Positions 3,167 to 31,093 of a stretch of 32,000 nucleotides of DNA are shown here, piece by piece. The notes beneath the pieces are model-generated. The model saw only the letters and a program-made list of their open reading frames with translations. It made no database searches and had not been told where the DNA came from. The stretch lies in contig JBAZRV010000008.1 in the NCBI GenBank assembly GCA_041662745.1, positions 1-32,000 on the forward strand. Direction: 5' to 3'. Numbering within the stretch: position 1 is the first letter of the stretch; each line of letters begins with the position of its first letter. Source of the stretch: Patescibacteria group bacterium (GTDB lineage: Bacteria > Patescibacteriota > Patescibacteriia > 2-01-FULL-39-33). The position numbers were made by a program, and so were the translations under genes.

Positions 3167-3170
3167 AAGC

Positions 3171-8963: not shown

Positions 8964-9737
8964 TTAAAGCCAGATAGCGGTGATAAGAGTTAAAACGACC
9001 ACCAAGGAGAAAATAAAGATTGCCCTTAAACCAGAGCCGCCTTTATTGCCTTTTGTTAAGCGGGCTGGGGATGATAAAGACAGAGACAGCATTAAATAAT
9101 AGGTGGCGGACAACAAGATGGCTAACACATAAAAACTAACCGGCCAAAACAACAACAAAAACAGCAATTCCGTTAATACTATAGCCTGTATTAAAGCATA
9201 AATCAAGGCGTTACGCCGGCCGGATAAATATTTAAGGTAAAGCCAATAATAAAGGACAAAATAAACCAAGCTCAAAATCGGGACAATCACCACCGCCGGC
9301 CAATTCAAAAAAATAGAAAAATTAACCAGAGCGGCCGTCAAGAAAAAAATTATCAGAATATCAAAGTATGAATGTAAATTATTCAAATTGGCCACGCTAA
9401 CCTTGGCGGTTTCATAAAAATCATGGAACACCACCTCCAGATAAAGCCAGAATAAAAAAGCCCAGGAGAGCAGGAACAGGTTAAGAACATAAAAACTTTC
9501 CAAAATCAATAAAAAAACAAAACCGGCAATAACGAAAATCAAACTGTAAAGATAGGCAAAAGTAACCGATTTGGTCTTGTGGTTAGATTTAATTAAAAAA
9601 AAATAAATACTGGGAACTGCTAAGATGACAATAAAAAACCACGACCAATAACCGGGCCAATAAAAAAGCGCTTGGCAAAGAAGAAAAAAGGCTACCGCCG
9701 CCAGATAAGGAAAAATTCGTAAAAGAAGCAAGATCAT
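8964..9737 (-). CDS. Polytopic integral membrane protein, unknown function, 257 aa
   Basis: Long ORF with about 8 hydrophobic segments, very rich in F/L/Y. Contains an A9 run (9595..9603) that does not break the frame. Confidence 0.7.
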   Translation of the reverse strand: MILLLLRIFPYLAAVAFFLLCQALFYWPGYWSWFFIVILAVPSIYFFLIKSNHKTKSVTFAYLYSLIFVIAGFVFLLILESFYVLNLFLLSWAFLFWLYLEVVFHDFYETAKVSVANLNNLHSYFDILIIFFLTAALVNFSIFLNWPAVVIVPILSLVYFVLYYWLYLKYLSGRRNALIYALIQAIVLTELLFLLLFWPVSFYVLAILLSATYYLMLSLSLSSPARLTKGNKGGSGLRAIFIFSLVVVLTLITAIWL

Positions 9738-16001: not shown

Positions 16002-16202
16002 TTAATTAATCAGCTGACTTAACTGTCCGGCAACAGACATATGCTCTATCTCCTGATCGCGAATAAGCAGTACGGCATCACGTTCAAAAGGATCAGCTAA
16101 GCTTTCCAAGAATTCATCATAGAGATTCAAAGCTTGCTTTTCCAGGGCATACAATTCAACAAAACTTTCAGCTAGCTCGGCTTTGCTTTTTTTTGTTTTC
16201 AT
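16002..16202 (-). CDS. 66-aa helical ORF overlapping the end of the PAS-PAS gene; possibly its displaced C-terminus
   Basis: MKTKKSKAELAESFVELYALEKQ...RDQEIEHMSVAGQLSQLIN. It overlaps the upstream ORF by 35 nt across a T8/A8 run (16187..16194). Its sequence resembles the last ~60 aa of the upstream ORF. Confidence 0.5.
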   Translation of the reverse strand: MKTKKSKAELAESFVELYALEKQALNLYDEFLESLADPFERDAVLLIRDQEIEHMSVAGQLSQLIN

Positions 16203-17307
16203 ATTTGATTAATTCTTTAAATTTTTTCTCATGTTCCCGGCTCTCCTCAAGCAGCTGTTCAAGAAGTTTTTTTATCTTTCTGACCTCAACGGCGCTTAAA
16301 TCGTAACTGCTTATCTTTGCCAAATAATCAGTAGTTAAGCTCTGCACCAGATCATCTTCCAGTTCTACGGCCTCCTGAAATTTTTGCGACCAGCTTTTTT
16401 CTGTCGCTGCTGGTTGCTCAACCGAACCCTTCCTAAGTTGTTCTTTAAGCTTGATTATCCGCAGTTCCCGTCCGACCATAAGCTCATTCAAACGTTCCAA
16501 GTCCCTCATTTTCTCCTTCAAACTATTCTCCGCCAGCCGCCGCTTAGTGATATCCAATGTAAAACCGATAACGCCCACGATGTCGCCGGCGGCATCGCGA
16601 TAAGGGATTTTATCGGTTTGGACCCAGAGAGTTTTATTAGGCAAAACCAAAGTTTCAATAATATTCCTCTTGGCCTTGCCCATTCTAATTACTTCCTTGT
16701 CATCATCCCAATAGGCTTGAGCCTGGTCTTTGCTGAAAAGATCAAACATGGATTTGCCCTGAAGCTGTTTCTTAGACATCCCCATTACATCGCTGAAGGC
16801 CCGGTTAACGCGGATAAAGCGATTATTTATATCTTTATAAAATATCCAAGCCGGCACGGAATCAAGAATTACTTCTATCTCCTGCTGCTGCCTGTGCAGA
16901 GCGTCTTCTATTTTCTTGCGCTCGGTAATATCACTGATTATACCCACCAAATAAAAATTTTTATTGCCGCTCTTAAAGACGTTCTTTTTAGTTATGATAT
17001 TATGCGTGACACCCCTGGCATCAGTGAATAATTCTTCATTGATATTCTCTTTGCCATTTTTAAACACCATTTCATCTTTACTCCAAAAAACCTTGGCCTC
17101 TTTATCCGAAAAAAAATCATAATCGGTTTTACCGATAAGCTTCTGCCGAGGGTACCCCATAAAAAGACAGTAAGCATCGTTAAGCAGAATCCAACGATGC
17201 TTGCGGTCTTTGACAAAAATCGGATCAGAAACCTTATTAATGATATCCAAAAGCACTTGCTCATCTTTGATAGAAAAATCAGAAGGCTTTGAAATTGGCG
17301 TTAGCAT
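16168..17307 (-). CDS. Cytoplasmic PAS-PAS protein with a coiled-coil/helical C-terminus; no kinase or other output domain in this frame
   Basis: Two PAS units (FVKDRKHRWILLNDAYCLFMGYPRQKLIGKTDYDFF and IFYKDINNRFIRVNRAFSDVMGMSKKQLQGKSMFDLF). These are followed by LKEKMRDLERLNELMVGRELRIIKLKEQL and a helical tail. Confidence 0.88.
   Translation of the reverse strand: MLTPISKPSDFSIKDEQVLLDIINKVSDPIFVKDRKHRWILLNDAYCLFMGYPRQKLIGKTDYDFFSDKEAKVFWSKDEMVFKNGKENINEELFTDARGVTHNIITKKNVFKSGNKNFYLVGIISDITERKKIEDALHRQQQEIEVILDSVPAWIFYKDINNRFIRVNRAFSDVMGMSKKQLQGKSMFDLFSKDQAQAYWDDDKEVIRMGKAKRNIIETLVLPNKTLWVQTDKIPYRDAAGDIVGVIGFTLDITKRRLAENSLKEKMRDLERLNELMVGRELRIIKLKEQLRKGSVEQPAATEKSWSQKFQEAVELEDDLVQSLTTDYLAKISSYDLSAVEVRKIKKLLEQLLEESREHEKKFKELIKYENKKKQSRAS
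16187..16194 (-). other. A8 (mRNA sense) homopolymer at the junction of the PAS ORF and the 66-aa ORF
   Basis: ...GAA AAC AAA AAA AAG CAA AGC CGA GCT AGC TGA. Removing one A gives ...ENKKSKAELAESFVELYALEKQ..., which joins the two ORFs. Confidence 0.6.
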
Positions 17308-17723: not shown

Positions 17724-20699
17724 TTATTTAACGGGCAGGGTAAAATAGAAAGTTGTGCCCTTATTCTCTTTGGAATCAAACCAAATCCTGCCGCCATGCG
17801 CTTCAACTATGCCTCGGGCGATATACAGCCCCAAACCTGTGCCTTCCGGCGCCACCCCCCTGATGTTATCCGCCCTGAAAAATCTCTCAAAAATACGATG
17901 TTGCTGATACTGCGGTATGCCATAACCCTGATCGGTAACGGCTATGGACCAATAGTCCCCTTGGCGCTGGCAATCAAAAGTTATTTTAGCTTTATCGGGA
18001 GAATACTTAATGGCATTGCTAATCAAATTATTCAGCATTTGGACGATTTTATCAAAATCAAAAACACAAATAATTTTCCCGTTTAAACCGCAACCAAAAA
18101 TCATGCTGATTTTCTTTTTATTGGCGGTTAACGTCTGATCTTCTATGGCGCGGCTAAGGGCTAAACGCAAATCGGCTGGTTTTTTGTTTAAGGTGAATTT
18201 TCTTCCCGTCTCAAGATGGGAAACGTCTAACAAATCATTAACCAACTTAATCATTCGTTCATTGCTATGATAAATCTGCTCAACAAAATCACGTTGCTCC
18301 TGATTCAACTTGCCAATCTTCTCCTTTAACAGCAATTCGCCAAACCATTTAATGCCGGTTAAAGGCGTCCGCAACTGATGTGAAGACATGGACACGAATT
18401 CTGATTTTAAACGATCAATTTCCTTGGCCTTGCTGATATCGCGCAAAATAGCCATGTCGGCCGGTTGACCATTTAAAACAACAACTGAACTATTGGTTTC
18501 TACCGGTATGGCTTTGCCGTGCTTATCAATAACGGCGAATTCATAACGAGTATCCACCCTCTCCCCCTGCATGCGACGCTTGTAATTGGAAGCGACCAGG
18601 CTCTTATATTGCGGAGCGATAAAATCAACCATGGGTTTGCCGATGACGTCTTGAGGAACCATGCCGGTAATCTTCTCTATGGCCGGATTGGCATATTTAA
18701 CTATACCCCCCTGAATCAGTATAACGGCATCATTACTGCGTTCCACCAGGATACTGTATCTTTCCTCCGATTGCTTGATTTCCCGTTCCCAGATCTTATG
18801 CTGAGTAATATCTTCAACAACTGTCAAAAAATATAGCGGCTTATCACTATTGTTTTTAATTAAAGTAGCGTTAACTCGGCCATAAACAATTTTTTTGTCT
18901 TTCCTGATATAACGTTTGTCCACGCTATAAACAGAAATCTTACCTTTAAGCAACAATTTGACTTTTTCTATATCCCTTTTGACTTCATCGGGATGCGTAA
19001 TATCGGCAAAGGTCAGCTTCTCAAGTTGGTCCTCGGAGTAACCCCAAAATTTAACAGCAGCCGGATTAGCACTAATGAATTTATTATCCAAGCCGACCAA
19101 GACAATGGGTATCGGGCTGTTTTCATAAATCGCTCGCAGGCGATCTTCGCTGTTAACCAGCTTTGTTTCTGTTTGGTGACGCGCAGTAATATCGCGGATG
19201 TTGCACTGAACGACTTTGGTGCGGCCAATATTATAGACATTACTGACAAATTCCACGCTGATCGGCTTGCCGGACTTGGTTCTTAAAGGCAAATTATCAT
19301 AATGGACATACTTCTTTTTCTTTAAAATTTCAAAAGATTTCTTGGAAGCCATTATGTCCTTAAATAACCCGATTTCCCACAATTTCTTCTGTAAAAATTC
19401 GTCTCTTCCATAGCCCAGCATCTCAATTAAATACGGATTAACCTCTTCAATTTCTCCGGTCTCAACATTAAGAATCAAAATGCCGTCCTTGGCCGCTTCA
19501 AACAACCGACGATATTTCTGCTCTGACTTAACTAAACTTTTTTGGATTTTTGTATCCTTAGTGACATCAGTGAAGCGCCAAACCCGGCCTACGATCTTAC
19601 CGTCAATTTTTTGCGGTAAAGACAAACGATCAAAAACCCGGCCATCCTTAAAATAAACAGTATCGGAACTTTTATTTGCCGGATGTTTATAAAGGTAGTT
19701 TACTTTGGTTAAAAATTCTTTGGCATCGGTAAGCTGGCTCACGACATAAGACAACAGCTTCTTGTCATTCTTCGTCTTCGCTAATTTCTGGGGTATTTTC
19801 CATAACTCCAAAAATTTTTCATTATAAAATGACACTCTGCCCCGGCGATCAATCACCAGGATGCCATCCGATGAAGTATTTGTGATTGAATCCAACAGGG
19901 AAACATAATTTTTTACGGTTATTTCATTTTTTTTAGTTTCGGTAATATCGCGGGAAAAACCCATGACATTGCTTATTCGGCCTGACTGATCCCTGACCGG
20001 CGTTAATTGCGTACTCAGCCAAACATCACCATGGGCAAAATGAGAAAGATCTTCCCGATAAGAGTGTTGACCGCTACGGAATACCTTATTAAGGTTAGCT
20101 TTTTGCCGTTTGGCCACGGCGGGCGGAAACAAATCCTTAACGCTTTTACCGACAATGTGAATCGGCTGGGCATTAAACTGTTTGGCTCCGAATTCATTAA
20201 CATAAGTTATCCGACCGCCCCTATCAACCAAGTAAATACTGTCATGAGCCATCTCAGCTAAGGTTTTATAAAGCACTTCGCTTTCTTTTTTTTCGGTAAT
20301 ATCGCGAAAAAAAGCGATTAAGCAATCGCGAGAATTAATCTTTATTCTGCCAAAGCCGGCAGAGACGAATTTAATTTTTCCCTTCTTGGTTATTATCTGC
20401 AAGTCCGCGCTTTTATCAAAACCCTTGCCTTTAGCCAATTGCGTAAAAACTTTTAGCGTTTTTTTAATGCTGTTTGCCGGATGCAAATGCCTGATGGACA
20501 ACTTAAGCAATTCTTTTTTGGCATAACCGAATAAACGGCAGGCGGCCGGATTAGCATCAATGATCTTGGTTGACAAGTCAGCAATCACAATGGCATCAGC
20601 CGTGTTATTAAACAACATCCGATAATTATATTCGCCACCGGCCATCAGTTCGTCCGGGGTGGGGCAGGATTGTTTTTGATTAAAAATCAGCCAATTCAT
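17724..20699 (-). CDS. Cytoplasmic multi-PAS sensor histidine kinase (about six PAS/PAC units + HisKA + HATPase_c)
   Basis: Repeated PAS signatures with no hydrophobic TM segment. H-box FVSMSSHQLRTPL, N-box LISNAIKYSP, DQGYGIP, GTGLGLYIARGIVE. I favour the ATG at 20699 (MNWLIFNQ). The ORF-track start at 20726 is a TTG that overlaps the giant gene's TGA stop. Confidence 0.9.
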   Translation of the reverse strand: MNWLIFNQKQSCPTPDELMAGGEYNYRMLFNNTADAIVIADLSTKIIDANPAACRLFGYAKKELLKLSIRHLHPANSIKKTLKVFTQLAKGKGFDKSADLQIITKKGKIKFVSAGFGRIKINSRDCLIAFFRDITEKKESEVLYKTLAEMAHDSIYLVDRGGRITYVNEFGAKQFNAQPIHIVGKSVKDLFPPAVAKRQKANLNKVFRSGQHSYREDLSHFAHGDVWLSTQLTPVRDQSGRISNVMGFSRDITETKKNEITVKNYVSLLDSITNTSSDGILVIDRRGRVSFYNEKFLELWKIPQKLAKTKNDKKLLSYVVSQLTDAKEFLTKVNYLYKHPANKSSDTVYFKDGRVFDRLSLPQKIDGKIVGRVWRFTDVTKDTKIQKSLVKSEQKYRRLFEAAKDGILILNVETGEIEEVNPYLIEMLGYGRDEFLQKKLWEIGLFKDIMASKKSFEILKKKKYVHYDNLPLRTKSGKPISVEFVSNVYNIGRTKVVQCNIRDITARHQTETKLVNSEDRLRAIYENSPIPIVLVGLDNKFISANPAAVKFWGYSEDQLEKLTFADITHPDEVKRDIEKVKLLLKGKISVYSVDKRYIRKDKKIVYGRVNATLIKNNSDKPLYFLTVVEDITQHKIWEREIKQSEERYSILVERSNDAVILIQGGIVKYANPAIEKITGMVPQDVIGKPMVDFIAPQYKSLVASNYKRRMQGERVDTRYEFAVIDKHGKAIPVETNSSVVVLNGQPADMAILRDISKAKEIDRLKSEFVSMSSHQLRTPLTGIKWFGELLLKEKIGKLNQEQRDFVEQIYHSNERMIKLVNDLLDVSHLETGRKFTLNKKPADLRLALSRAIEDQTLTANKKKISMIFGCGLNGKIICVFDFDKIVQMLNNLISNAIKYSPDKAKITFDCQRQGDYWSIAVTDQGYGIPQYQQHRIFERFFRADNIRGVAPEGTGLGLYIARGIVEAHGGRIWFDSKENKGTTFYFTLPVK

Positions 20700-20722
20700 T
20701 ATAATATCTAAATATTTATATT

Positions 20723-23700
20723 TCAAACATTAGCTGACTGCCTTTTTCTGACCCGATACAGCCAGAAAATGACAGCGACTAAGACAATTAAGGTTATAAC
20801 TGTCGTCTGCCAGTTTAGATAACGATAAATCATTACCCAAAAGTTGCGCTTGACCGTAAAGGTGCTGACCGGACTGGGACGGCTCTTGACCTGCGCCGTT
20901 GAATCCAGGGTAACGGCAAAAACAGTATGCTGGCCCGGGGCCAGTTCTGTTATATCTTGCGAGTGATCAATACGCCAATTGCCCTGACTGTCAGCGCGCG
21001 TACGATAAATCAAAGCCTGATCGCTATGAATATAAATGATAACATCCCGATTGGGCAAAGAGACGCCGGAGAAACTCAGAGTATCGCCCGTAACCACGGT
21101 CTGCACGTTGGTAACTTGCGGTACCGGGATGCCGGCCAATTCTACGGCTTGAGCGTTCAACTCCACCAACTCTGCCGTTGGAGTCGGTCCAGTGGGGATG
21201 GCGGCAGCGGTTATTGCCGGCACAGCCGGCGTCGGCAGAACCACGACCTTATTAACAGCCACACTGGCTGAATCGCTGGTGTTGCCGGCCTGATCGCGAC
21301 TGACAGCGCCAATAATATGTTGGCCGTCAACCAGCGCCGAGGCGCTGGGCAATCGGAAACTCCAAGCGCCGGACGAATCGGCGGTTACGGTAAAGCTGCT
21401 GCGGTTGTCTAAAGTGATAATCACCTCAACGAGCGGTTCAGCTACGCCGGTGATTATTGGTGTCGCTTCAATTATGGCTGAATTATTAGCCGGATTTAAA
21501 ATTATCGGAACCGCCGGCGCCACACTGGTAATTATCAGAACAACCGGATCAGAAACCTGGCTGATATTCCCCGTTCCGTCAGTCGCCCTGACCGTTAAGG
21601 AATGGTTGCCCGGTAAAAAATTAAAAACCTGATTGAATCGGCCGCCATTGTCGGTAGCATTGCTTAATTGAGCGAACAAAACTCCGTTGTCAAACAAGTC
21701 AATACGCGATCCCGGTTCAGCCAAACCGCCGATAATAGTTATTGTGTTGTTGGTCGGCGAGTCCAGCGGATTCAAAAGCGGCTTAACCGGCGCAGTCGTA
21801 TCCGGCACCAAAATGGCACCACCGCCGACCACTGGCGGGATGACGGGCGGAACAACCGGAGGAGTTACCGGAGCAAAGACGTTAAGCTGGGTAACCGTCG
21901 CTTCATTGCCGTAATCGTCTATGGCCCAAATCTTAACATAATAATTGTCAGTGATATTCAAACCGGTGATGACCGTGGAGATGGCTAAGGGATTGGACAA
22001 GTTAGCATCGTTAACCACGCTCCATTTGCTGGCCGCGCCCGTGCGATTTATGACATCGCTTTCCGTTGCGTCATGCCATAACTCGTAGTGATTGAAATTA
22101 GCATCGGTTGTCGCTTGCCAATTCACGGTAACAGTCGTGGCGGTTTCCGAAAACTTGCTCAAAGAAGAAAGCCCCAAAGGCGCTCCCGTATCAACGGAAA
22201 AGTTAGCTGATTCATAATACGCGCTGGCATTGCCAAAACTGTCAGTGCCGCTAAAACGCACTCGCATATTGGAATTTTCTTGATTGATGAAATCCGCGCC
22301 GGCGTTCCAAATAATTGCTTTATTATTGCCCGCCGTTACCGTCCCCAAATCACCGGTCGCAGCAACCTTAGTAACCGTCCAAGTCAAACCGCCGTCAGAA
22401 GAAATATCCCAAGCAACATCAGCAGTCTCGCCCAAATCATAGCTTATCGCAACATTGTCCGTGCCAATGGTTTGGCCGGCTGAGATGCCGGAGATAATCG
22501 GGGCCTTAGTATCCAAAGCAAAATTGCCGGAAGAGTCATAAGCGCCTTGATTGCCGAAATAATCTTTAGCGCGGACGCGAACTCTCACCGTCGACAGATC
22601 TTGACCGGTAAAATCCGTACCGGCGGCCCAAGTGAAGGTCTTAGTCCCGATAGTCTGGCCGGGACCGATTTGGCCGCTTCTGGTTGTCGTGGGCACCGTC
22701 CAAGTAATGCCGCCATCATCGGAAATGCTGAATTCAATCAGATTGCCGGCCGGCGTAATATCCGTTAAGTTATAATTTATAACCACATCGGTCGTGCCGG
22801 CCGATTGGCTGGCAGTAACGTCACTGACTGCCGGGCCTTTAGTGTCAATGGTAAAATTATCAGAAATAACGATTGAACCGACGTTGCCATAACGATCCGT
22901 GCCTTGGAGTTTTATTTTAACGGCAGAATTTTCTTGATTAGGCAGGTCAACTTGCGGATTCCAACTGATACTCTTGCCGGCGCCGGCCGTAACGTTACTG
23001 CCGATATCGCCAGTTGCCGTAGTAAGAGCGACGGTATAAGTTAAACCGCCGTCAGCGGAAATTAATAAGCTAACGGTGTTGCTGGCACCGGAATTATCAG
23101 ATAAATCATAAGTGATTGCGGCCAAGCCCGTACCCGGAGCCTGCGTTAAATCAATATTGGAAACAACCGGTCCCAGGGTATCCGCATAAAAAGCCGAGGA
23201 AGCCGCCAAATTACTGTCAGCCAAAGCATCCGAGGACTTCAAGCGCGCATAGACCGTGGAATTCTCCTGATTGGGCAAATCAATCGCTATGTCCCAGGCA
23301 AAAACGTAAGCCGTACCGGCGGAAGCGAAAATTAGACTGGAAGTGCCGTTTGAACCCACCCCTAATTTTTCGGTCATAGCCTGCCAGTTGACATTATCAA
23401 TAGAATACTCAAAAACAGTTAAGTCATTAGTGTCATTTTGCGCGTCCGCGCCCGTATAATTGATTAATACGTAACCGCCGCTGGCCTGCTGAGCTGCGCT
23501 TGAGATATTAATTGAGGGGGCGGTATTAGCAATACCGGCCACTGTGGAAAAATCGGATTCGGAAGAGACTGAATGCGCGGCATCACTCGGATTGCGGGAT
23601 TTGATTTTAAAGCTATAGTTAGCCACCGGCGAACTCAAGCCATTAATGGTTACTTGACCGCTGTTACCGCTGGTTTGGCCCCATTGGCCGATGCCGGTGC

Positions 23701-25570
23701 CCAGTGTCTGCCAAACCGCACTGGCGCCTAAGGTACCATTGCTTTGCACGTATTGATCGGTGAAAACTTCATAAATGGCGTACGGCACATCACTGGCCTC
23801 GCCAAAAGCCGGATTGATCGTTACATCTACCGCAGTGTTCTGCGGATTATTAACTGTGGGCGCTGAGGGCGTATATGGCTTGACATATTTATAACTCGCC
23901 GTAGGAGAGGTGTTCTCATTTATCCTGGCGTGGCCGTAATTATCGGTTTCTATAATTTTAACCTTGGCAATATAGTCATGGCCGGTGAGCGTACCGCCAG
24001 CCGGTACGGCTTGGTTAGCCGGAGTCGCAGTATTACTTTCTCCCGTGGTGGTGGCCGAATAGGCGTTGCCGCTAAAAGCGACAAAAAACTCATTGGTAAT
24101 CGGATTAGCCTCGGTAAACGACCCGCTGACAATCGCATCAGTGTCGCCGGCTTGCGGCTGAGCCGCCAAATCGGCAGTCGCCAAGATCGCCGGAGCCAGG
24201 GTGTCCACGCTAAAGACGCCGGCTAAAACGGCATACGCGCTGCTATTGCCATAGGTATTGGTGCCGCGAATGCGGACTTTCATATTGCTGTTTTGCTGGC
24301 TATTGAAATCCACTCCCGGATTCCAAGAAACCGTCTTACCAAGTCCCGGTGCGACCCCATAACCGACAGCGCCAGTTAAGGTGGTGGTAACCACACTCCA
24401 AGTGACGCCGCCGTCATCGGAAATATCGACACTAATAACCACATTATCGCTATCAAATAAATTGTAAGTTATAGTGACATTATCGGAACCGACAACCTGC
24501 GCCGCCGTTAGGCCATTAATCACTGGGGCTTGAGTGTTAACGGCAAACAGGTTGGAAGTGACATTGCCGGTCGCATTGGCGTAAGCGTCAACGGCTCGCA
24601 AGCGAACCTGCATATTATTAACCTGCTGATTGGGAAAATTCGCTCCAGCATCCCAAGTGATGATCTTACCGTTGCCGGTTGTTATGCCCGAGCCAATGGC
24701 GCCGCTAACGCTTGAAGAAGCGACATCCCAGGTACTGCCTCCGTCCGAGGATATATCCATAGCCACAACAGAACTGTTAGCATCGCTAAAATCGTAACTT
24801 ATGGACACTAAACTGCTACTGACGACCTGAGCCGCGGCAACATTGGCAAAAACCGGGGCCTTGGTATCAACGGAAAAATCAGCAGATGAAACAAGCGTTC
24901 CGATATTGCCAAAATTATCCCTGGCTCCCGCTCGCACTCTGACCGTACCCGATTCTTGGCCGGAGTAATCAACACCGGGATTCCAGTTGATAGCCTTGCC
25001 GCTGCCCGGCACGACATTATCTCGAACATCGCCGGAAGCCGTGGAAGTCGCGACAGTCCAAGTTGATCCGCTGTCCGAAGAAACATCAAATTCCACATAA
25101 GAATCGGATAAATCGGTCAAATTATAACTTACGGATACATTATTTGAATCGGCATCTTGGCTGGCGGTGACCGAGGCCGTTACGGGGTTTTTGGTGTCAA
25201 TAATAAACGCCGCGGAAGCCGTTATGCCGCCACTGCTGGTGCCGTCGTTAGCCTGCAATCTGACAAAAACCGTCTCATCTTCGGTGTTAGGCAAATCCGC
25301 GCCCGCGTCCCACATAAAATCATGCGCGGTTCCGGAAGAAACAAAAGTTAAATCGGTTTTTCCGTCCGAACCCACCCCCGTTTTCTCGGTCATAGCATGC
25401 CAAACGGCATTGTCAGTGGAATATTGATAAATGACCAGGGTAGTGGTTTCGCTTTCCAAATCCGAACCGGTATAATTGATAATCGCATACTTGGTGCCGT
25501 CGGCAGTCTGAGCAACCGAATCAATGGCAATGGTCGGCGACTGGTTGACTGAAGAGGCGCTGCTGGACAA
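20723..25570 (-). CDS. Distal part of the giant repetitive surface protein: super-repeats 3-4, FN3, Pro-rich linker, three bacterial Ig-like domains, C-terminal TM anchor
   Basis: 1615-aa ORF with no signal peptide. The listed first codon is a TTG inside a frame that stays open upstream to 25726. The repeats each carry an Asp-box SxDxGxTW. Also present are FN3 (TVTVNWQA...YYVKIWAIDDYGNE), the linker VTPPVVPPVIPPVV, Ig-like units (ADSSGAWSF...DGQH, ADSQGNWRI...PGQH), and the C-terminal anchor WQTTVITLIVLVAVIFWLY followed by RVRKRQ. Confidence 0.85.
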   Translation of the reverse strand: MSSSASSVNQSPTIAIDSVAQTADGTKYAIINYTGSDLESETTTLVIYQYSTDNAVWHAMTEKTGVGSDGKTDLTFVSSGTAHDFMWDAGADLPNTEDETVFVRLQANDGTSSGGITASAAFIIDTKNPVTASVTASQDADSNNVSVSYNLTDLSDSYVEFDVSSDSGSTWTVATSTASGDVRDNVVPGSGKAINWNPGVDYSGQESGTVRVRAGARDNFGNIGTLVSSADFSVDTKAPVFANVAAAQVVSSSLVSISYDFSDANSSVVAMDISSDGGSTWDVASSSVSGAIGSGITTGNGKIITWDAGANFPNQQVNNMQVRLRAVDAYANATGNVTSNLFAVNTQAPVINGLTAAQVVGSDNVTITYNLFDSDNVVISVDISDDGGVTWSVVTTTLTGAVGYGVAPGLGKTVSWNPGVDFNSQQNSNMKVRIRGTNTYGNSSAYAVLAGVFSVDTLAPAILATADLAAQPQAGDTDAIVSGSFTEANPITNEFFVAFSGNAYSATTTGESNTATPANQAVPAGGTLTGHDYIAKVKIIETDNYGHARINENTSPTASYKYVKPYTPSAPTVNNPQNTAVDVTINPAFGEASDVPYAIYEVFTDQYVQSNGTLGASAVWQTLGTGIGQWGQTSGNSGQVTINGLSSPVANYSFKIKSRNPSDAAHSVSSESDFSTVAGIANTAPSINISSAAQQASGGYVLINYTGADAQNDTNDLTVFEYSIDNVNWQAMTEKLGVGSNGTSSLIFASAGTAYVFAWDIAIDLPNQENSTVYARLKSSDALADSNLAASSAFYADTLGPVVSNIDLTQAPGTGLAAITYDLSDNSGASNTVSLLISADGGLTYTVALTTATGDIGSNVTAGAGKSISWNPQVDLPNQENSAVKIKLQGTDRYGNVGSIVISDNFTIDTKGPAVSDVTASQSAGTTDVVINYNLTDITPAGNLIEFSISDDGGITWTVPTTTRSGQIGPGQTIGTKTFTWAAGTDFTGQDLSTVRVRVRAKDYFGNQGAYDSSGNFALDTKAPIISGISAGQTIGTDNVAISYDLGETADVAWDISSDGGLTWTVTKVAATGDLGTVTAGNNKAIIWNAGADFINQENSNMRVRFSGTDSFGNASAYYESANFSVDTGAPLGLSSLSKFSETATTVTVNWQATTDANFNHYELWHDATESDVINRTGAASKWSVVNDANLSNPLAISTVITGLNITDNYYVKIWAIDDYGNEATVTQLNVFAPVTPPVVPPVIPPVVGGGAILVPDTTAPVKPLLNPLDSPTNNTITIIGGLAEPGSRIDLFDNGVLFAQLSNATDNGGRFNQVFNFLPGNHSLTVRATDGTGNISQVSDPVVLIITSVAPAVPIILNPANNSAIIEATPIITGVAEPLVEVIITLDNRSSFTVTADSSGAWSFRLPSASALVDGQHIIGAVSRDQAGNTSDSASVAVNKVVVLPTPAVPAITAAAIPTGPTPTAELVELNAQAVELAGIPVPQVTNVQTVVTGDTLSFSGVSLPNRDVIIYIHSDQALIYRTRADSQGNWRIDHSQDITELAPGQHTVFAVTLDSTAQVKSRPSPVSTFTVKRNFWVMIYRYLNWQTTVITLIVLVAVIFWLYRVRKRQSANV

Positions 25571-28500
25571 AGCGCTATCACTGGAAGCGGCATGGGCTCC
25601 ATCACTGCTATTGCGCGATTTAACCTGGAATTGATAATGGTAGGAATCGAGGATTAAACCGCTGATATTAACTTTGCCGGCTACGCCTGAATAAAATCCC
25701 CACTGAAAAAAAGCCGGTACCGCTCACCTGCCAAACAGGACTGGCGCCTAAAGTTCCGTCGCTCTGCACATATTTATTCTGGGAACCTTCATAAATCGCG
25801 TATTCCAAACCATCGGTTTCTGCCGGATTTTTATTGATTAAAACATCCACCGTGCCAACGCCGGGATTGTTAACGGTCGGCGCCGACGGCGTGTACGGCT
25901 TAACATACTTATAGGCTGAATTAGGCGAGCCATTCTCATTGGTTATAGTCTGGCCGTAATCATCCGTATGAGTGATTTTGACTTGGGAAATATAATCATT
26001 ACCGTCCAAAGTGACGCCGACAACCGTAGCCTGATCGGCCGGCGAAGCGGTATTGACGCTTCCGGCAGTGGCGGAACCGTAAGAACCGCCGTCAATCGCT
26101 ACATAAAAATCATTGGTATTGGGGTTGGCCTCGGTAAAAGAACCGCCGATCAATGTTGTTGTTGCTCCGGCCAAAGGCTGGGCTGACAAATTAGCTATGA
26201 CGCTAACGGCCGGCGGCAGAGTATCAAGAGAAAAATCGGCTGAAGGCACATTGGCCGATTGATTGGCAAAAATATCCAAAGCCCTGACCCGCGCTTGCAT
26301 CGTACTTAAATTTTGATCGGGAAAATCAACGGCCGCATTCCAGGTGACGGTTTTGCCCGTTCCCGGGGTTATGTTGGCGCCGATCTCACCACTTAGGGTT
26401 GAGGTGGCCACTAACCAAGTTGACCCGCTATTGTTAGAAATATCCAATATTACCAAAGAATTGTTCTGATCGGCTAAATCATAAGTAATTGTTACGCTTG
26501 TTCCGCCCAAAGGTTGCGTGGCTGAAACATTGGTTAGGCGCGGGGACTTAGTGTCCAAAGAAAAATCAGAAGAGGCTAAAGCGCTATTATTGCTAAAACT
26601 GTCGGTCGCGGTCAAACGGAATTGCATGTTAGTCTTTTCCTGATCATTATAATCGGCGCCAGCGTCCCAAGTGATGGTTTTGCCGGATCCGGGTATGACT
26701 GCTACGCCCAAATCGCCAGTTGCCGAAGAGGTGGCCACAGTCCAAGTTGATCCCCCGTCGGCGGAAACAGCCAATAATAGATTAGCATTGCCGGCGTCTT
26801 CGGAAACATCATAATGAAAAGTAAAAGTATTGGCATTGCCGTCTTGGCCGGCGGAAAGATTAGACAATACCGGCGCATGCGTATCAACGGTAAAGATTGC
26901 GGAACCGCTATAAGATCCCTGATTGCCAAAGCTGTCCCGAGCTCTAACCCGCACCAGGACATTGGTATTATATTGATTGTCATAATCAGCTCCGGCATTC
27001 CAAGCAACGCTTTTGCCAACGCCCGGCGTTACCCCTGAACCGACGGCGCCGGTTAAGCTTGAGGTGGCGACAGTCCAGGTTGACCCGCCATCGCCGGAAA
27101 TATCTATCTGAATCAAAGAGCTGTTAGCGTCGGTTAAATTATAAGTTATGGCCACGGTTCTGGCGCCGGCGTTTTGGCTGGCGGTTACATCCGAGACAAC
27201 CGGAGCCTTGTTATCCAAAGAAAAATTCGCCGAAGCGACTAAACTGCCGTCAGTCAAGGTGTCGTTTCCTCTTAAACGAATCTTGGCTGTGGTTGTTTCC
27301 AAGCTCGGTAAATCCGCGCCCGAATCCCAAACAAAACTATAAGCGCTGCCGGTCGGCAAAAATATCAGATTAGCCGTGCCATTACTGCCTGCGCCGGACT
27401 TCTCTGTCATGGCCTGCCAACTGGAGCCGTCAACGGAATACTCGTAAGCGGATAAATAAGTAACATCGCCCTGGCCATCCGTACCCGTATAAGCAATGGG
27501 GCTGTACTGCGAGCCGTCTGTTGTTTGGGCATAACTGTCTAAAACAATGCCGGGGGCGGTATTGGTGATTTGCGCCGTAGCGGAAAAAGCCGAGTCCGAA
27601 GACGCCGCATGGCCGGCATCACTGGGGTTGCGCGACTTAACCTTAAAAATATAATTAGCCACCGGCGAAGATAAGCCGGTTATTCTGACCGTACCGGCCG
27701 AACCGGTATTATTGCCCCATTGGCCGGAACCGGTGCCGATAATCTGCCAAACCGGGCTGACGCCTAAAGTGCCGTCGCTCTGCACATATTTGGAAGTCGT
27801 GGTTTCAAATAGAGCGTATTGCACATCACCGGCTTCGCCGGCGTGCGAATTAATTGTCAAATCCAAACGCGTGGTAACGGGATTGCTCAAGGTCGGGGCT
27901 GACGGCGTATAAGGCTTAACATACTTATAAATGGAATTCGGAGTTAAATTTTCATTAACTCCCAGGTTGAAGTAATCATCGGTATGAACAATCTTAACCT
28001 GAGAAATATAATCATTGCCGTCCAAAGTGGCGCCGACAGCCGTGGCAAGATTAGACGGAGTAGCCGTATCACTGTCGCCGGCCGTAGATGAGCTGTAACC
28101 GCCTCCGTCAATCGCCACATAAAAATGATTGGCATCGGGATTAACCTCGGTAAACGATCCGCCGATTAAAACCGCAGTGTCGCCGGCGTTGGGTTGAGCT
28201 TGCAAATCAGCCGCGGTTAATGTCGCTGCCGGCAAAGTATCCAAAGAAAAATTAGCCGAGGCGGAATAAACGCCCTGGTTCTGCCACTTGTCCTTGGCCC
28301 GGATGCGCACTCGCATATTGCTTTTCTGTTGGTTGGGATAATCCGCGCCGGCAGTCCAATAAATTGTCTTGCCATTGCCGGCCGTTACTCCCGCGCCGAC
28401 AGCGCCGCTAACGCCGGTTGCCGGTACCGTCCAAGTATCTCCGTCATCGCCCGATATTTGCATCTCTACCAAAATATTATCGGCGGTATCATCAAATAAA

Positions 28501-28922
28501 TCATAAGTGACGGCCACTGTCGTTGTGCCCAAGGGTTGAGTGGCTAAAACATTGGAAACGGTGGAAGAAACATAATCAACGGTGAAAACGGAGGAAGTGG
28601 CATAAATGCCATTGCCGATGCCGTCATTAGGCCGTAAACGAACATAAGTGGTGGTAACGACGTCGCCCAATTGCGAACGGGCGTCCCAAACGAAAGTGTG
28701 GGGCGTACCGCCGGAAGAAGCGGGCAAGCCGGAAACTCCGCTATGGGCCGGATCGGTGGTGGAGGCGGTCATAGTCACCGCGTCGGCAAAGGTGCCGGAT
28801 AAGGAATACTCATAAGCCGTCAAACTGGATATATCGTCTTCCGCGTCTTGCAAATTATAATTGACATGGACATAACCATAAGTTGTGTCTTGCGCCGGCG
28901 CCACAGATTGCACCTGGGGTCG
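22187..28922 (-). repeat. In-frame array of four diverged super-repeats inside the giant gene, period 2016 nt (672 codons)
   Basis: Unit 1 is 27552..28922 (A-B-C). Unit 2 is 25532..27551 (A-B-B-B-C, contains the frameshift). Unit 3 is 23516..25531 (A-B-B-B-C). Unit 4 is 22187..23515 (A-B-B-B). The landmark INYTG occurs at residues 31-35 and 703-707 of ORF 20723..25570. The landmark YKYVKPYTPSAPT recurs near 27915, 25895 and 23880. Confidence 0.85.
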
Positions 28923-30269
28923 CTGATTTTGCGTGTAAGTAATGGTGATATTATCCAAAATCACCTGCTGAGTGCCATCGCTCGACAAGTAAGCGCGCCA
29001 TTTTATTTGATTGGTAGAAGTGGTGAATTTAGAAATATTGGCGTTAACATCGGTTGCTGTATTATAATCAGTCGTTAAGGTGGTGGTCGCCCAAGCTGAG
29101 CCGTTGTAATATTGCCAATTAGACCCGTCATCAGCTGACAATTGATAATAAATTTCTCCGCCGTTTTTAGTCGCTGTTTCCACGAAAGAATTCCAACTTA
29201 CCGTCTTGAGCATCGTCAATGAGGCGACTGGAGTAGTTGTTGGCTTATCGGAAGCATAAGCATGAGTGGTTTTCGACCAATCCAACTGGATATTGTCAAA
29301 ACCAACCGTATAAGGACCAATATTAGAACCGCCGGTTTCCAGCCAAACAGCTAACTTAAGATAATAAGTGCCAATAGCCGTTACCTTGGAAGAAACATCC
29401 AAATTGCTGACCGAAGTCCAACCTTGGGTAGCGGTTATTTCTCCCGACGACCAGACCTCTTGGCCGATAGTCGGCGCGCCGGTGCCAGTATCAATAAAAG
29501 CGTAAACCTTAAAGGTTATGGGCGGATTGGGAGTAGAATCATAAGCTGTAACATGATAATCAAAACTTACAGTTGCTGTCGGATCGGTAACAGTGGTGGT
29601 AAAGCCCTGCCGCCAATAACCGCCTAATTCATCATCTTTGCCGGACGGCGCGCTGATATTTACCCAGCCGCCGGGATTGCCGCCAGTCGTAATCCTAGCT
29701 CCGGTAATATTAACCTCGCCCCCTCCCTGGCCCCAATCGGCATAAGTCCAACCGGTGGTATCGCTGTCAAAACCGGGGTTGGTGATGTTGCCACTATCGG
29801 TCGTACCATTATCTTTTAATTGAGCTACCCCGCCGGTTACCTCAATTTTGGCAGGGTCATAAGTGTAATCGCCGGCGTTGTCAAAAGTCCAATCCTGCGT
29901 GTCGGCCAAAATCTGAATTGCGCCCAAAAAAATAAAAGATAAGATGCCGACGACCAAAATTTTCAAAACAAACAGGCCTCCCGCGCCGCCTGCAGTGGCC
30001 AAACTGATGCGCCGCCTGACGGTGTAAACCCGCAGAGGCTTAACGGCTTTCTGCCGGCTGGGAAAAATCATTCCTTGCTCTTGCAATCGGTCCGGCGGAA
30101 CCAACAGGTACATGGGCAAGGAGACAACGGCAAACACGACTTCTATCGCCAATAATTCTACGGCTAAAGGCAGGACTCTGTACCATTGTCCGGTTTTAAC
30201 GACTTTTTGACGCAAACCGAAAACATAGCCGGAATAAGAAAAAAATAGATTTAGCCAGCGCTTAGACAT
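25668..30269 (-). CDS. Proximal part of the giant repetitive surface protein: N-terminal TM module, lectin/CBM-like jelly-roll region, super-repeats 1-2. It is truncated 14 codons after a T7 run
   Basis: The likely start is MSKRWLNL at 30269, 2 nt after the stop of the 273-aa gene. Two hydrophobic segments are followed by NPGFDSDTTGWTYADW, a CBM-like signature. After that come Asp-box beta-sandwich repeats and FN3-like modules. Confidence 0.88.
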   Translation of the reverse strand: MSKRWLNLFFSYSGYVFGLRQKVVKTGQWYRVLPLAVELLAIEVVFAVVSLPMYLLVPPDRLQEQGMIFPSRQKAVKPLRVYTVRRRISLATAGGAGGLFVLKILVVGILSFIFLGAIQILADTQDWTFDNAGDYTYDPAKIEVTGGVAQLKDNGTTDSGNITNPGFDSDTTGWTYADWGQGGGEVNITGARITTGGNPGGWVNISAPSGKDDELGGYWRQGFTTTVTDPTATVSFDYHVTAYDSTPNPPITFKVYAFIDTGTGAPTIGQEVWSSGEITATQGWTSVSNLDVSSKVTAIGTYYLKLAVWLETGGSNIGPYTVGFDNIQLDWSKTTHAYASDKPTTTPVASLTMLKTVSWNSFVETATKNGGEIYYQLSADDGSNWQYYNGSAWATTTLTTDYNTATDVNANISKFTTSTNQIKWRAYLSSDGTQQVILDNITITYTQNQRPQVQSVAPAQDTTYGYVHVNYNLQDAEDDISSLTAYEYSLSGTFADAVTMTASTTDPAHSGVSGLPASSGGTPHTFVWDARSQLGDVVTTTYVRLRPNDGIGNGIYATSSVFTVDYVSSTVSNVLATQPLGTTTVAVTYDLFDDTADNILVEMQISGDDGDTWTVPATGVSGAVGAGVTAGNGKTIYWTAGADYPNQQKSNMRVRIRAKDKWQNQGVYSASANFSLDTLPAATLTAADLQAQPNAGDTAVLIGGSFTEVNPDANHFYVAIDGGGYSSSTAGDSDTATPSNLATAVGATLDGNDYISQVKIVHTDDYFNLGVNENLTPNSIYKYVKPYTPSAPTLSNPVTTRLDLTINSHAGEAGDVQYALFETTTSKYVQSDGTLGVSPVWQIIGTGSGQWGNNTGSAGTVRITGLSSPVANYIFKVKSRNPSDAGHAASSDSAFSATAQITNTAPGIVLDSYAQTTDGSQYSPIAYTGTDGQGDVTYLSAYEYSVDGSSWQAMTEKSGAGSNGTANLIFLPTGSAYSFVWDSGADLPSLETTTAKIRLRGNDTLTDGSLVASANFSLDNKAPVVSDVTASQNAGARTVAITYNLTDANSSLIQIDISGDGGSTWTVATSSLTGAVGSGVTPGVGKSVAWNAGADYDNQYNTNVLVRVRARDSFGNQGSYSGSAIFTVDTHAPVLSNLSAGQDGNANTFTFHYDVSEDAGNANLLLAVSADGGSTWTVATSSATGDLGVAVIPGSGKTITWDAGADYNDQEKTNMQFRLTATDSFSNNSALASSDFSLDTKSPRLTNVSATQPLGGTSVTITYDLADQNNSLVILDISNNSGSTWLVATSTLSGEIGANITPGTGKTVTWNAAVDFPDQNLSTMQARVRALDIFANQSANVPSADFSLDTLPPAVSVIANLSAQPLAGATTTLIGGSFTEANPNTNDFYVAIDGGSYGSATAGSVNTASPADQATVVGVTLDGNDYISQVKITHTDDYGQTITNENGSPNSAYKYVKPYTPSAPTVNNPGVGTVDVLINKNPAETDGLEYAIYEGSQNKYVQSDGTLGASPVWQVSGTGFFSVGILFRRSRQS
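25706..25712 (-). other. A7 (+ strand) / T7 (coding strand) homopolymer: the frameshift site in the giant gene
   Basis: Coding strand: GGT ACC GGC TTT TTT TCA GTG ... TAA. The +1 frame is open from 25726 downstream and carries the expected paralogous sequence. Confidence 0.8.
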
Positions 30270-30271
30270 AG

Positions 30272-31093
30272 CTAAAGAGTTAATATGGTTAAGAAAATTC
30301 CTAATAAGATGATAATAATCACCGACCAATTGGCCAAGGAATCAATATTCTTGGCGATTAAATCAAACCAAGTGGAAGTTACTTTGAAATATTGGGTCGG
30401 CGCAGTCTCGCTCCTGGTCCCCTGCTGTTGATTGTAACTAAAAACCAGCACCGAATGATTGCCCTCGCTTAAACGAAAATTGCTTTGCAGTTGTTCTATC
30501 CGCCAGTTGCCGGCTGAATCCGCATCGGCCGTATAAACCGCCGTCTGCTGATCCGACAACAATAAAACAACCGTAGCCAGCGGTTGTCCAACGCCTGAGA
30601 AGACGTAATTGCCTCCCCTGATTTTTTTGACTTGTCGCAATTCCGGCCTCGCCATAGTGTTTACTACGCGAGCCGTCTGGATTCCCGTATCAGCGGCCAC
30701 CAATTCCTGTTGCGTAATGTCGGCCGGCTGTAAATCGCCTACCGAATAAAGTTGCAAGGGACCGAAAACGGTCGGTGTCAAAACAATAATCAATAATTTT
30801 GCCAGCCAAACCAAAGCGATAACGCCAACGCCGGTAACTGTTAGGATGCGGCGTAAATTATAATCAAAATTCACTTGGGCATAAGACCCTTGGTCGGCGA
30901 AATAAGCCGTAACGTCGCGAGACTTCAAGGTCAGATATAACGGAAGAGAGGTCACGGCTAAAAATATCTCCCAGAAAAAAAGTAGGAAAATATTATAAAC
31001 TGCCTCCAACCCAGTTTGCCCTACGATAAGTTGTTTGCGATTATAGATGCGGTTGGTTAAAAGCAATACGAGATTTAACCATTTATTCTTCAT
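30272..31093 (-). CDS. 273-aa membrane protein: a mini-paralog made of the giant protein's N-terminal TM module plus its last Ig-like domain and C-terminal TM anchor
   Basis: MKNKWLNLVLLL...EIFLAVTSLPLYL...RRILTVTGVGVIALVWL aligns with MSKRWLNLFFSY...EVVFAVVSLPMYL...RRISLATAGGAGGLFVL. FSGVGQPLATVVLLLSDQQTAVYTADADSAGNWRIEQ...EGNHSV aligns with FSGVSLPNRDVIIYIHSDQALIYRTRADSQGNWRIDH...PGQHTV. The C-terminal helix is WSVIIIILLGIFLTILTL. Confidence 0.85.
   Translation of the reverse strand: MKNKWLNLVLLLTNRIYNRKQLIVGQTGLEAVYNIFLLFFWEIFLAVTSLPLYLTLKSRDVTAYFADQGSYAQVNFDYNLRRILTVTGVGVIALVWLAKLLIIVLTPTVFGPLQLYSVGDLQPADITQQELVAADTGIQTARVVNTMARPELRQVKKIRGGNYVFSGVGQPLATVVLLLSDQQTAVYTADADSAGNWRIEQLQSNFRLSEGNHSVLVFSYNQQQGTRSETAPTQYFKVTSTWFDLIAKNIDSLANWSVIIIILLGIFLTILTL

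Follow-up and report, generated by a model that had tools for sequence, protein, structure and literature searches.

A giant surface-protein gene of a Patescibacteria group bacterium split at a T7 run, probably by a recent frameshift mutation

The analysis of a 32,000-nucleotide stretch of DNA from a Patescibacteria group bacterium (GenBank assembly GCA_041662745.1, contig JBAZRV010000008.1, positions 1 to 32,000, hereafter the window) has revealed that two very long open reading frames of the minus strand are parts of one gene of 3,181 codons, which is interrupted by one extra T in a homopolymer run. The whole gene occupies positions 20723..30269, with the ATG at 30269 and the stop codon at 20723..20725. 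The explanation considered most probable, with moderate confidence, is a real and recent slippage frameshift in a single giant surface-protein gene, neither a switch nor an assembly error.

As written, the giant gene contains 9,547 nt, that is 9,546 nt (3,181 codons and the stop) plus the extra T. The break maps to a T7 run of the coding strand (A7 on the plus strand) at 25706..25712, 3' of a GGC codon, and the frame is lost after the codons TTT TTT of Phe1520-Phe1521; the reading of this region given in the first-pass annotation (GGT ACC GGC TTT TTT TCA GTG GGG ... AGT TAA) was confirmed in the sequence. The upstream ORF, listed at 25668..30329, is annotated from the ATG at 30269 (25668..30269, minus strand, TAA stop at 25668..25670, NCBI MFA6228504.1), and its product of 1,533 aa, a length that had been anticipated approximately, consists of 1,521 native residues and 12 aberrant out-of-frame residues (SVGILFRRSRQS). 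A tail peptide specific to this truncated product is ...GTGFFSVGILFR, and VSGTGFFQWGFYSGVAGK is an example of a junction peptide of the frame-corrected protein. When one T is removed, the upstream ORF and the downstream ORF (20723..25570) fuse into a single 3,181-codon frame, in which the continuation of the gene in the next frame (20723..25705, minus strand) provides codons 1522-3181 of the intact protein. A test of run lengths gave an open frame with T6 (3,181 aa) and with T9 (3,182 aa), and the T5, T7 and T8 versions reached a stop 7 to 12 codons past the run.

The window has a G+C content of 46% and 34 long homopolymer runs, 30 of them inside ORFs, and the T7 run is the only one that breaks a frame. 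The 29 other in-ORF runs, T8, A8 and A9 runs among them, are all unbroken; the A9 run at 9595..9603, already described as lying in an unbroken ORF, sits within ORF 8964..9737. A second homopolymer frameshift was considered at the A8 run 16187..16194, between a PAS-only ORF and a 66-aa ORF, and was rejected in favour of a conserved overlapping gene pair: a 51%-identical homologue has the same endpoint and is overlapped by the same small gene, which starts at an ATG of its own, and the homopolymer is lacking there.

The proposal that the two ORFs are one gene of about 3,181 codons split at the T7 run is borne out by intact orthologues that match it in length and synteny. In Patescibacteria, about 35 to 40 orthologues of 3,139-3,212 aa are each encoded by a single ORF, and they cover 100% of the corrected product. 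The closest one (P0001) shows 82% identity, has a length of exactly 3,181 aa and the sequence ...GTGFFQWGFYSG... at the residue of the break, and its gene (10001..19546 in contig L004) is 9,546 nt long, the length of the corrected giant gene. The sample identifier of this orthologue (JGI 3300029288) is cited in a landfill metagenome study. In a tblastn search with P0001, residues 1-1525 aligned in frame -1 (30269..25695) and residues 1520-3178 in frame -2 (25711..20738) with 81-83% identity and exactly one frame switch, and because both halves are collinear with the orthologue in adjacent frames the split can not be due to chance. A protein-guided scan of GTDB genomes and JGI metagenomes retrieved 16 loci, all of them more distant and none closer than the 82%-identity orthologue, which are continuous across the junction wherever the contig covers it.

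The gene order is also conserved and comprises two response regulators, a 273-aa gene, the giant gene and a PAS kinase. In the window, the conserved 273-aa upstream neighbour (30272..31093, minus strand) stops 2 nt before the ATG of the giant gene, with the same spacing in the orthologous loci, and the longest ORF of the downstream PAS sensor histidine kinase, another conserved neighbour (17724..20726, minus strand), overlaps the stop of the giant gene by 4 nt. Type IV pilus and two-component genes adjoin the loci of this family, which was found here essentially only in metagenome-assembled genomes labelled as Patescibacteria. The family, as yet unnamed, comprises doubly anchored giant surface proteins with an N-terminal 'M..WLNLFF' membrane module, a CBM-like head, supermodules of about 672 aa, a Big_13 stalk, a C-terminal transmembrane segment with 'WLYR.RK' and the conserved locus, and all these features are present in the window after frame correction. 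Two other members of the family are also disrupted, one split by an in-frame TAA (L011) and one with its 3' end replaced by phage-like genes (L009), which fits a large gene acting as a large mutational target.

The corrected protein begins with the N-terminal membrane module (29898..30182, minus strand), in which a Kyte-Doolittle scan located hydrophobic segments at residues 30-59 and 88-124, and which is conserved in nearly all family members. The head region (residues 125-470; 28860..29897, minus strand) was modelled with AlphaFold2 as two beta-sandwich domains (pLDDT 91.6), and its Foldseek matches include CBM61, CBM11, CBM4, CBM22, phage tailspike proteins and a gingipain adhesin domain, with E values of about 1e-4 to 1e-3; the best single-domain fold matches of the model are carbohydrate-binding modules, and the head is thus predicted to be CBM-like. 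It is followed by three tandem supermodules of about 672 aa (residues 471-1142, 1143-1815 and 1816-2488; 22805..28859, minus strand) composed of Ig-like domains with an Asp-box-like motif and FN3 domains, with 47-48% protein identity and 67-70% DNA identity to one another. The break falls in the second supermodule, and the two intact copies of the module quoted in the first-pass annotation were located at corrected residues 845 and 2190. A Big_13 stalk lies between the supermodules and the C-terminal transmembrane anchor (residues 3150-3175, ...VITLIVLVAVIFWLYRVRK; 20744..20821, minus strand; Kyte-Doolittle scan), which is missing from the truncated product. Of the 70 family matches tabulated, 66 have a corresponding C-terminal region, in all size classes, and judging from these sequences the anchor matters.

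The domain that contains the break (corrected residues 1453-1580; 25529..25913, minus strand) had no match in a Pfam search, and therefore its fold was obtained by structure prediction. The AlphaFold2 model (pLDDT 89.6) is a beta-sandwich of FN3 type, and almost all of the top 50 Foldseek matches listed from the PDB are FN3 domains or FN3-containing proteins. The frameshift occurs after residue 69 of this 128-residue model, with two of the seven modelled strands (80-83 and 95-100) beyond it. The prediction that the truncation keeps the N-terminal membrane module and removes half of the repeats, the stalk and the C-terminal anchor is likewise upheld by the orthologues.

The comparison of the site with related genomes, proposed in the first-pass annotation, revealed no relative with the frame break and a run that is lineage-specific. 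None of the orthologues examined is out of frame here; the closest relative has a T7 in frame (GGT TTT TTT), the next one has TTC TTC, and the run is absent in 10 further loci, those in which the motif at the site could be read. The dN/dS values were 0.13 for the upstream half and 0.10 for the downstream half against P0001, and 0.11 for both halves against a second orthologue (P0003), and since the downstream half has not decayed, the lesion looks recent. A fully intact downstream frame of 4.98 kb is also expected from an artefact or from an expressed (rescued) gene.

The identical 1,533-aa product and the T7 were found in three assemblies, namely the JGI/NCBI contig, the ENA MEGAHIT contig k141_1534693 and the Logan contig SRR18595301_472315. 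These assemblies differ mutually at SNPs 26907, 26877 and 17925, and therefore represent independent path choices. Judging by their accession pattern, the reads behind them are probably the same or overlap, so that an assembler-specific artefact is excluded, and a bias at the level of the reads or a mixed T6/T7 population would still be compatible with them; the reads themselves presumably support T7. No tract-length polymorphism within the strain was seen in the three consensus assemblies, in which minor variants may go undetected. An exact-pattern scan for the site with T6-T8 in GTDB genomes and JGI metagenomes gave no match, and there is consequently no independent population for comparison. 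Queries with small proteins of the neighbourhood located the same strain in a second run (SRR6484324; L031, 100% identical), where its 1.9-kb contig ends short of the giant gene. They also reached a relative of about 90% nucleotide identity (JGI 3300037067), on a contig of 1 kb. The corrected 3,181-aa product was not found by exact look-up in the protein collection, a weak result because the window's own two proteins were also missed, and a homology search with a junction-spanning peptide, which was not exhaustive since it missed P0001, retrieved only fragments from an error-rich contig.

According to the favoured explanation, a recent frameshift mutation, Phe-Phe is encoded as TTT TTT in this lineage and T6 would have become T7, most simply by replication slippage. 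Set against the GG-TTTTTTT-CAA of the closest orthologue, the additional nucleotide may just as well be the C of GGC as a T. The extra T shifts the frame in the second supermodule, within its FN3 domain, and T7 would be the dominant or consensus allele of the sampled population and evolutionarily very recent. The resulting product would be a 1,533-aa N-anchored fragment ending in half of an FN3 domain, in which the second half of the repeats is missing, together with the stalk and the C-terminal anchor. The downstream ORF of 1,615 codons is an artefact of annotation in the shifted frame, and its translation as a separate unit is improbable; the downstream part would remain untranslated, and the function would presumably be lost. 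In effect, a gene that offers a large target for mutation has newly acquired a truncation or pseudogene allele here, which might revert to T6. The present evidence points to a mutation of an ordinary kind.

Among the other explanations, a reversible ON/OFF phase variation, in which T6 encodes the full-length doubly anchored protein, T7 encodes the short form and the consensus represents the OFF state, is the best placed, and is nevertheless judged improbable. A mononucleotide run inside a surface-protein gene is the classic setting for such a mechanism, T6 and T9 are the sole nearby lengths that open the frame, and the undecayed downstream half is in line with it. In addition, if the reads are shared, as seems to be the case, the three SNPs between assemblies would indicate that more than one variant coexists in the sample, and the same strain occurs in at least one other run. 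However, T7 is found in all three assemblies despite their different alleles at the three SNPs, the tract is short (7 nt), not conserved and in frame in the closest relative, and only three runs of at least 7 nt occur in the 9.5-kb gene, which therefore lacks the enrichment of a contingency locus. No T6 product was found in public collections either, in searches of weak power.

A sequencing, library or assembly artefact, with a true T6 and an intact gene, is also unlikely as the origin of T7. A homopolymer excess of 1 nt together with an intact downstream frame and normal dN/dS is what would be expected of an error, and assemblies can disagree on indels, as occurs with the kinase adjacent to P0003, frameshifted in a JGI contig (L007) and open in a Logan contig (L008), which differ in a C3 or C4 run. 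Against this, T7 is common to the outputs of the JGI pipeline, MEGAHIT and Logan. The k141 contig names from MEGAHIT and the length of the Logan contig point to short reads, and with short reads a 7-nt run is not expected to carry an indel error in the majority of them. The unbroken state of the 29 other in-ORF runs points in the same direction, as does the very different appearance of a truly error-rich contig (L028), in which the orthologous gene and those next to it are broken up into small ORFs spread over the three frames. Repeat-collapse misassembly was rejected, the longest exact internal repeat being only 20 nt and the repeats being too diverged.

A rescue at the level of expression, by a +1 shift of tRNA-Phe on UUU_U or by slippage of RNA polymerase on U7/A7, would yield some full-length protein and is considered very unlikely. 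Re-pairing of the P-site UUU with UUU would be perfect in the +1 frame and would produce the native ...FFQWG..., compensatory frameshifting is a recognised class (PMC5009743), full-length products are reportedly made by transcriptional slippage from homopolymer-frameshifted genes of Blochmannia and Buchnera (PMC3017870), and the undecayed downstream half also agrees with a rescued gene. On the other hand, the break is conserved in no orthologue, the A site has neither a slow nor a stop codon (UCA, 8.6 per 1,000 codons, is not rare), the nearest SD-like sequence (AGGUGA, about 11 nt upstream of the run) is present in the unbroken orthologue too, and the downstream RNA shows no structure (fold z-score -0.5). 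Moreover, the loss of one U would be needed, whereas most transcription errors at A/T runs insert a base and deletions seldom coincide with homopolymers (PMC5574713), and it is typically only from about 9 nt that selection against slippage shows (PMC1088944). The sequence features of the T7 run thus lend no support to a slippery site that was programmed or evolved. Taking switch and rescue together, there is only a slim chance that the T run works as a reversible switch of a giant doubly anchored adhesin, whose short form would keep the CBM-like head, or allows a low-level +1 or slippage rescue that tunes the amount of full-length protein.

The remaining possibility, two genuinely separate genes for proteins of 1,533 and 1,615 aa, as annotated in both NCBI and JGI, is ruled out for practical purposes by the collinearity with orthologues that are almost always single ORFs, and the downstream CDS (MFA6228503.1) is annotated only from an internal in-frame TTG at 25570, inside the FN3 domain, with the frame open for 48 more codons 5' of it, back to the T run, with no Shine-Dalgarno-like sequence found before this TTG or nearby in-frame starts and no hydrophobic, membrane or signal segment near the ORF start in a Kyte-Doolittle scan. 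The TTG is translated as L in JGI and as M in NCBI, the two proteins being otherwise identical, so that the listed M was correctly recognised as a TTG in the first-pass annotation. Of the three options that it had offered for the broken frame, assembly error has become unlikely and phase variation or slippage at an evolved site is unsupported, which leaves a plain recent frameshift.

MFA6228504.1 and MFA6228503.1 are consequently better treated as one frameshifted gene, and no separate protein corresponds to the '1,615-aa Ig-like protein'. A highly conserved Patescibacteria surface protein of about 3,180 aa can drop to half its length in a natural population, and this, together with the two other members broken by a nonsense codon or a phage-like insertion, suggests that, under some conditions, the giant protein can be dispensed with or is selected against. 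A switchable run would provide a handle on contact-surface variation in these ultrasmall bacteria. A true switch would be the first SSR-type phase variation, and a true rescue the first compensatory recoding, documented for a host-contact protein of the Candidate Phyla Radiation, the switch operating in an uncultured, possibly episymbiotic Patescibacterium.

Contingency loci with slipped-strand phase variation of surface proteins occur in Neisseria, Haemophilus, Campylobacter, Helicobacter and Mycoplasma. The giant gene resembles them in having a mononucleotide run in a large surface-protein coding region, where one unit toggles between full-length and truncated forms, but here the tract is single, short and lineage-specific, no length polymorphism was seen and the gene has no repeat enrichment. 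In endosymbionts, homopolymer-indel frameshifts are first steps of gene erosion and are sometimes rescued by transcriptional slippage (PMC3017870). As in Blochmannia and Buchnera, an undecayed gene is split by one indel within an A/T run, and the ambiguity between 'very recent' and 'rescued' is common to both cases; however, their tracts typically have 9-12 nt in very AT-rich genomes, in contrast with 7 nt in a window of 46% G+C, and some of their frameshifts are conserved between populations or species, whereas the break described here was seen in no relative.

Compensatory ('savior indel') frameshifting has been described in endosymbionts, mitochondria and the G7 run of the HSV thymidine kinase (PMC5009743). 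The T7 site shares with the HSV thymidine kinase and with prfB-type sites a run that allows perfect P-site re-pairing in +1 and a shifted product that is the native protein, but it is unconserved, lacks a stop or hungry A-site codon, a suitably spaced SD-like stimulator and an RNA structure. Programmed transcriptional slippage, as in T. thermophilus dnaX, Shigella mxiE and IS elements, typically uses a conserved run of at least 9 nt (PMC1088944), in contrast with the lineage-specific run of 7 nt found here. With regard to the protein, the likeness to BapA/Bap/LapF and SiiE lies in a multi-thousand-residue surface protein made of tandem Ig-like or Big_13-type domains; BapA-type proteins gave weak partial matches, with Big_13-type similarity over 6-17% of the query, and a Pfam search of the giant protein detected neither a BapA prefix domain nor any other Bap-family domain. 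Unlike BapA, Bap and LapF, the family described here is membrane-anchored at both ends and combines a CBM-like head with FN3 domains.

The two giant minus-strand ORFs listed at 25668..30329 and 20723..25570 had been read in the first-pass annotation as a single surface-protein gene split at a homopolymer, and this reading is correct. The ORF coordinates and the coding-strand sequence at the run were as described there: the minus strand at 25740..25668 reads GGT ACC GGC TTT TTT TCA GTG GGG ATT TTA TTC AGG CGT AGC CGG CAA AGT TAA, and the run itself (25706..25712) is A7 on the plus strand and T7 on the coding strand. Once one T is removed, a single reading frame stays open for 3,181 codons, starting at the ATG (30269) and stopping at 20723..20725. 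With T9 this frame is likewise open; the T5, T7 and T8 variants each meet a stop 7 to 12 codons past the run. As written, the gene product consists of 1,521 native and 12 aberrant residues. The listed initial methionine of the downstream ORF is really an in-frame TTG, as had been noticed; the JGI and NCBI versions of this protein differ solely at residue 1 (L and M, respectively). The downstream frame has 48 more open codons upstream of the TTG, reaching back to the T run.

A search with the corrected protein recovered some 35 to 40 sequences with lengths of 3,139-3,212 aa, all covering 100% of the query and labelled, where the source names them, as Patescibacteria, Buchananbacteria or Uhrbacteria. 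The best match (P0001) has exactly 3,181 aa and 82% identity, and at residue 1517 it reads ...GTGFFQWGFYSGVSGKINISGL..., in agreement with the corrected junction initially proposed; another orthologue, P0003, has 3,178 aa and 78% identity to the corrected protein. In a tblastn comparison with the window, P0001 aligned in exactly two segments, which are collinear, lie in adjacent frames and meet at the T run. Synteny is kept in the relatives, comprising two response regulators, a 273-aa gene that stops 2 nt ahead of the giant gene's start codon (ATG), the giant gene itself and a PAS histidine kinase, after which type IV pilus genes are found. The surroundings retrieved for P0001 and P0003, both 3.2-kaa members, have two-component genes flanking the giant gene and type IV pilus genes after them.

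The domain at the junction (corrected residues 1453-1580) was modelled as a seven-strand beta-sandwich (pLDDT 89.6), and almost all of the best 50 PDB matches listed were FN3 domains or FN3-containing proteins. The frameshift falls after residue 69 of its 128 residues, which removes the final two strands of the model (80-83 and 95-100). The truncated product ends in a partial FN3 domain, with 1.5 supermodules missing along with the stalk and the C-terminal anchor. The dN/dS values against P0001 were 0.13 in the upstream half and 0.10 in the downstream half, those against P0003 were 0.11 in each half, and the control pair P0001/P0003 gave 0.09 and 0.10. Neither relaxation nor a second lesion was found in the downstream half (4.98 kb), and the frameshift is therefore very recent relative to species divergence, unless the lesion is not real or the gene is still expressed. 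A real, recent slippage mutation leading to a truncated, probably non-functional allele is considered the probable explanation. Compared with the closest orthologue, it is formally possible that the C of GGC is the additional base, but with dS between both genes near 1 the simplest path is a synonymous GGC/GGT difference followed by slippage from T6 to T7. Such a frameshift adds a further case of a well-known type, useful for annotation and of low general interest unless read data show a T6/T7 mixture.

A reversible phase switch, in which changes in run length would alternate a short and a full-length surface protein, would also account for the undecayed downstream half but is considered unlikely. 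The same site was compared in relatives, as the first-pass annotation had suggested: the closest relative has an in-frame T7 (GGT TTT TTT CAA), the next one TCT TTC TTC CAG, and ten more orthologous loci have other residues there, their T runs being no longer than five. The T run at the break is thus not conserved.

A read-level artefact is likewise improbable. The window belongs to a 32,953-nt contig present in both JGI/IMG and NCBI, from a MAG named 'Patescibacteria group bacterium', with MFA6228504.1 and MFA6228503.1 as the two proteins. The identical truncated product is also encoded in the ENA MEGAHIT contig ERZ27249449:k141_1534693 and in the Logan contig SRR18595301_472315, and hence T7 is present there too. 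The three assemblies presumably share the same or overlapping read sets. Compared with the window, the MEGAHIT and Logan contigs have other bases at 26907 and 26877, with the protein unchanged, and they differ from each other at 17925, so the assemblers chose differently at polymorphic sites, yet T7 was kept throughout. The same strain was found in a second run (Logan SRR6484324, 100% identity over 1,877 nt to the fetched locus L002, 1,021 nt of it overlapping the window) and a relative at about 90% nucleotide identity in a third sample (JGI 3300037067), both as short contigs ending before the frameshift site. Assembly comparison can expose discordant indels where present, as in the PAS histidine kinase next to P0003, which forms two pieces of 685 and 305 aa in L007 (a JGI contig) and one open frame in L008 (a Logan contig), with CCC versus CCCC and two SNPs within 11 nt (L007 15840..15850, L008 12334..12344); either the strains vary here or one of the contigs contains an assembly error. 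In contrast to the single T7 break, error-driven breaks look like those of a 9,753-nt contig (L028, JGI 3300038404), apparently an error-rich assembly, where the orthologue and the kinase beside it are broken up into ORFs of 42-305 aa across all three frames. This contig is the origin of the short 'proteins' P0105 and P0106. Repeat-driven misassembly is unlikely, with internal repeats at 67-70% DNA identity and a longest exact repeat of 20 nt.

Homopolymer errors are not pervasive in the window, as had been proposed: 30 of its 34 long runs, including T8, A8 and A9, lie within ORFs, and the frame is broken only at T7. An apparent second frameshift at the A8 run (16187..16194) was instead a conserved overlapping gene pair. 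A 66-aa ORF (16002..16202, minus strand) overlaps by 35 nt the end of a PAS-only 379-aa ORF (16168..17307, minus strand), and the overlap spans the A8 run on the coding strand. A 51%-identical homologue has the same end point and an overlapping 64-aa gene with its own ATG and no homopolymer (locus L029: PAS protein ending in YENxK, 2501..3280; 64-aa ORF in the +1 frame, 3264..3458). An ExxH motif occurs in both the PAS-protein C-terminus and the small protein, so the two might form one helical domain. Elsewhere in the window, the similarity of a 309-aa ORF (3171..4100, minus strand) to ClpB/ClpA is confined to the D1 AAA domain (roughly positions 155-400 of the 853-position model), and 4 nt downstream lies a 365-aa ORF (2069..3166, minus strand) with no family match; the pair is either a minimal Clp-like ATPase with its partner or a remnant.

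Rescue of the T7 allele during expression is very improbable, if conceivable at a low level: indels compensated by frameshifting or slippage are known (PMC5009743, PMC3017870), but no recoding signal was found at the run when the A-site codon, SD-like elements and downstream RNA folding were checked (0-frame UCA, 8.6 per 1,000 codons; a sole AGGUGA about 11 nt upstream, also present in the intact orthologue; 106 nt downstream folding no better than shuffles, z = -0.5), and rescue by RNA polymerase requires the loss of one U, whereas slippage at A/T runs gives mainly insertions genome-wide and deletions are rarely homopolymer-associated (PMC5574713). Selection against slippage-prone runs is typically seen from about 9 nt (PMC1088944).

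Other family members are broken as well. In locus L011 (861..11963) an in-frame TAA at about 6660 (...PANQVV*VYTTLDGDDY...), a nonsense mutation and not a frameshift, cuts a member into 1,933 and 1,736 aa. In L009 and L010 a member stops early, directly followed by phage-like genes (terminase, methylases). In L009 (2556..18114), the protein P0068, of 1,852 aa, has no C-terminal stalk or anchor, and the phage-like block there includes AAA_24, two DNA methylases and a GpA-type terminase; a prophage may have inserted itself into the giant gene of this Patescibacteria MAG, at the 3' end. These very large genes have thus been disrupted repeatedly, by mechanisms unrelated to each other, which fits plain mutation of a large target, and perhaps fluctuating selection on a surface protein.

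Three hydrophobic segments were located in the corrected protein (residues 30-59, 88-124 and 3150-3175), and RVRKRQ follows the third. Residues 125-470 were confidently modelled as two beta-sandwich domains (pLDDT 91.6), and the best fold matches of this head region, with modest scores (E about 1e-4 to 1e-3), were carbohydrate-binding modules (CBM61, CBM11, CBM4, CBM22), phage tailspike proteins and a gingipain adhesin domain. After the head come three supermodules of about 672 aa with 47-48% mutual protein identity; the protein as a whole has ten Asp-box-like motifs (S.D.G.TW pattern), four of them upstream of the break and six downstream, and the C-terminal part contains a Big_13 match. Family members (P0001-P0069) fall into size classes of about 1.8-2.0, 3.0-3.2, 3.6, 3.9-4.1 and 4.7 kaa, a spacing consistent with one to five supermodule copies. 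Among the 70 family matches tabulated, the N-terminal module is kept in all but one and the C-terminal stalk and anchor region is matched in 66. All size classes retain the N-terminal membrane module with its CBM-like head as well as the C-terminal anchor. By analogy, the product would be a giant surface protein of adhesin-like type with an anchor at each end; it does not belong to the BapA or SiiE families.
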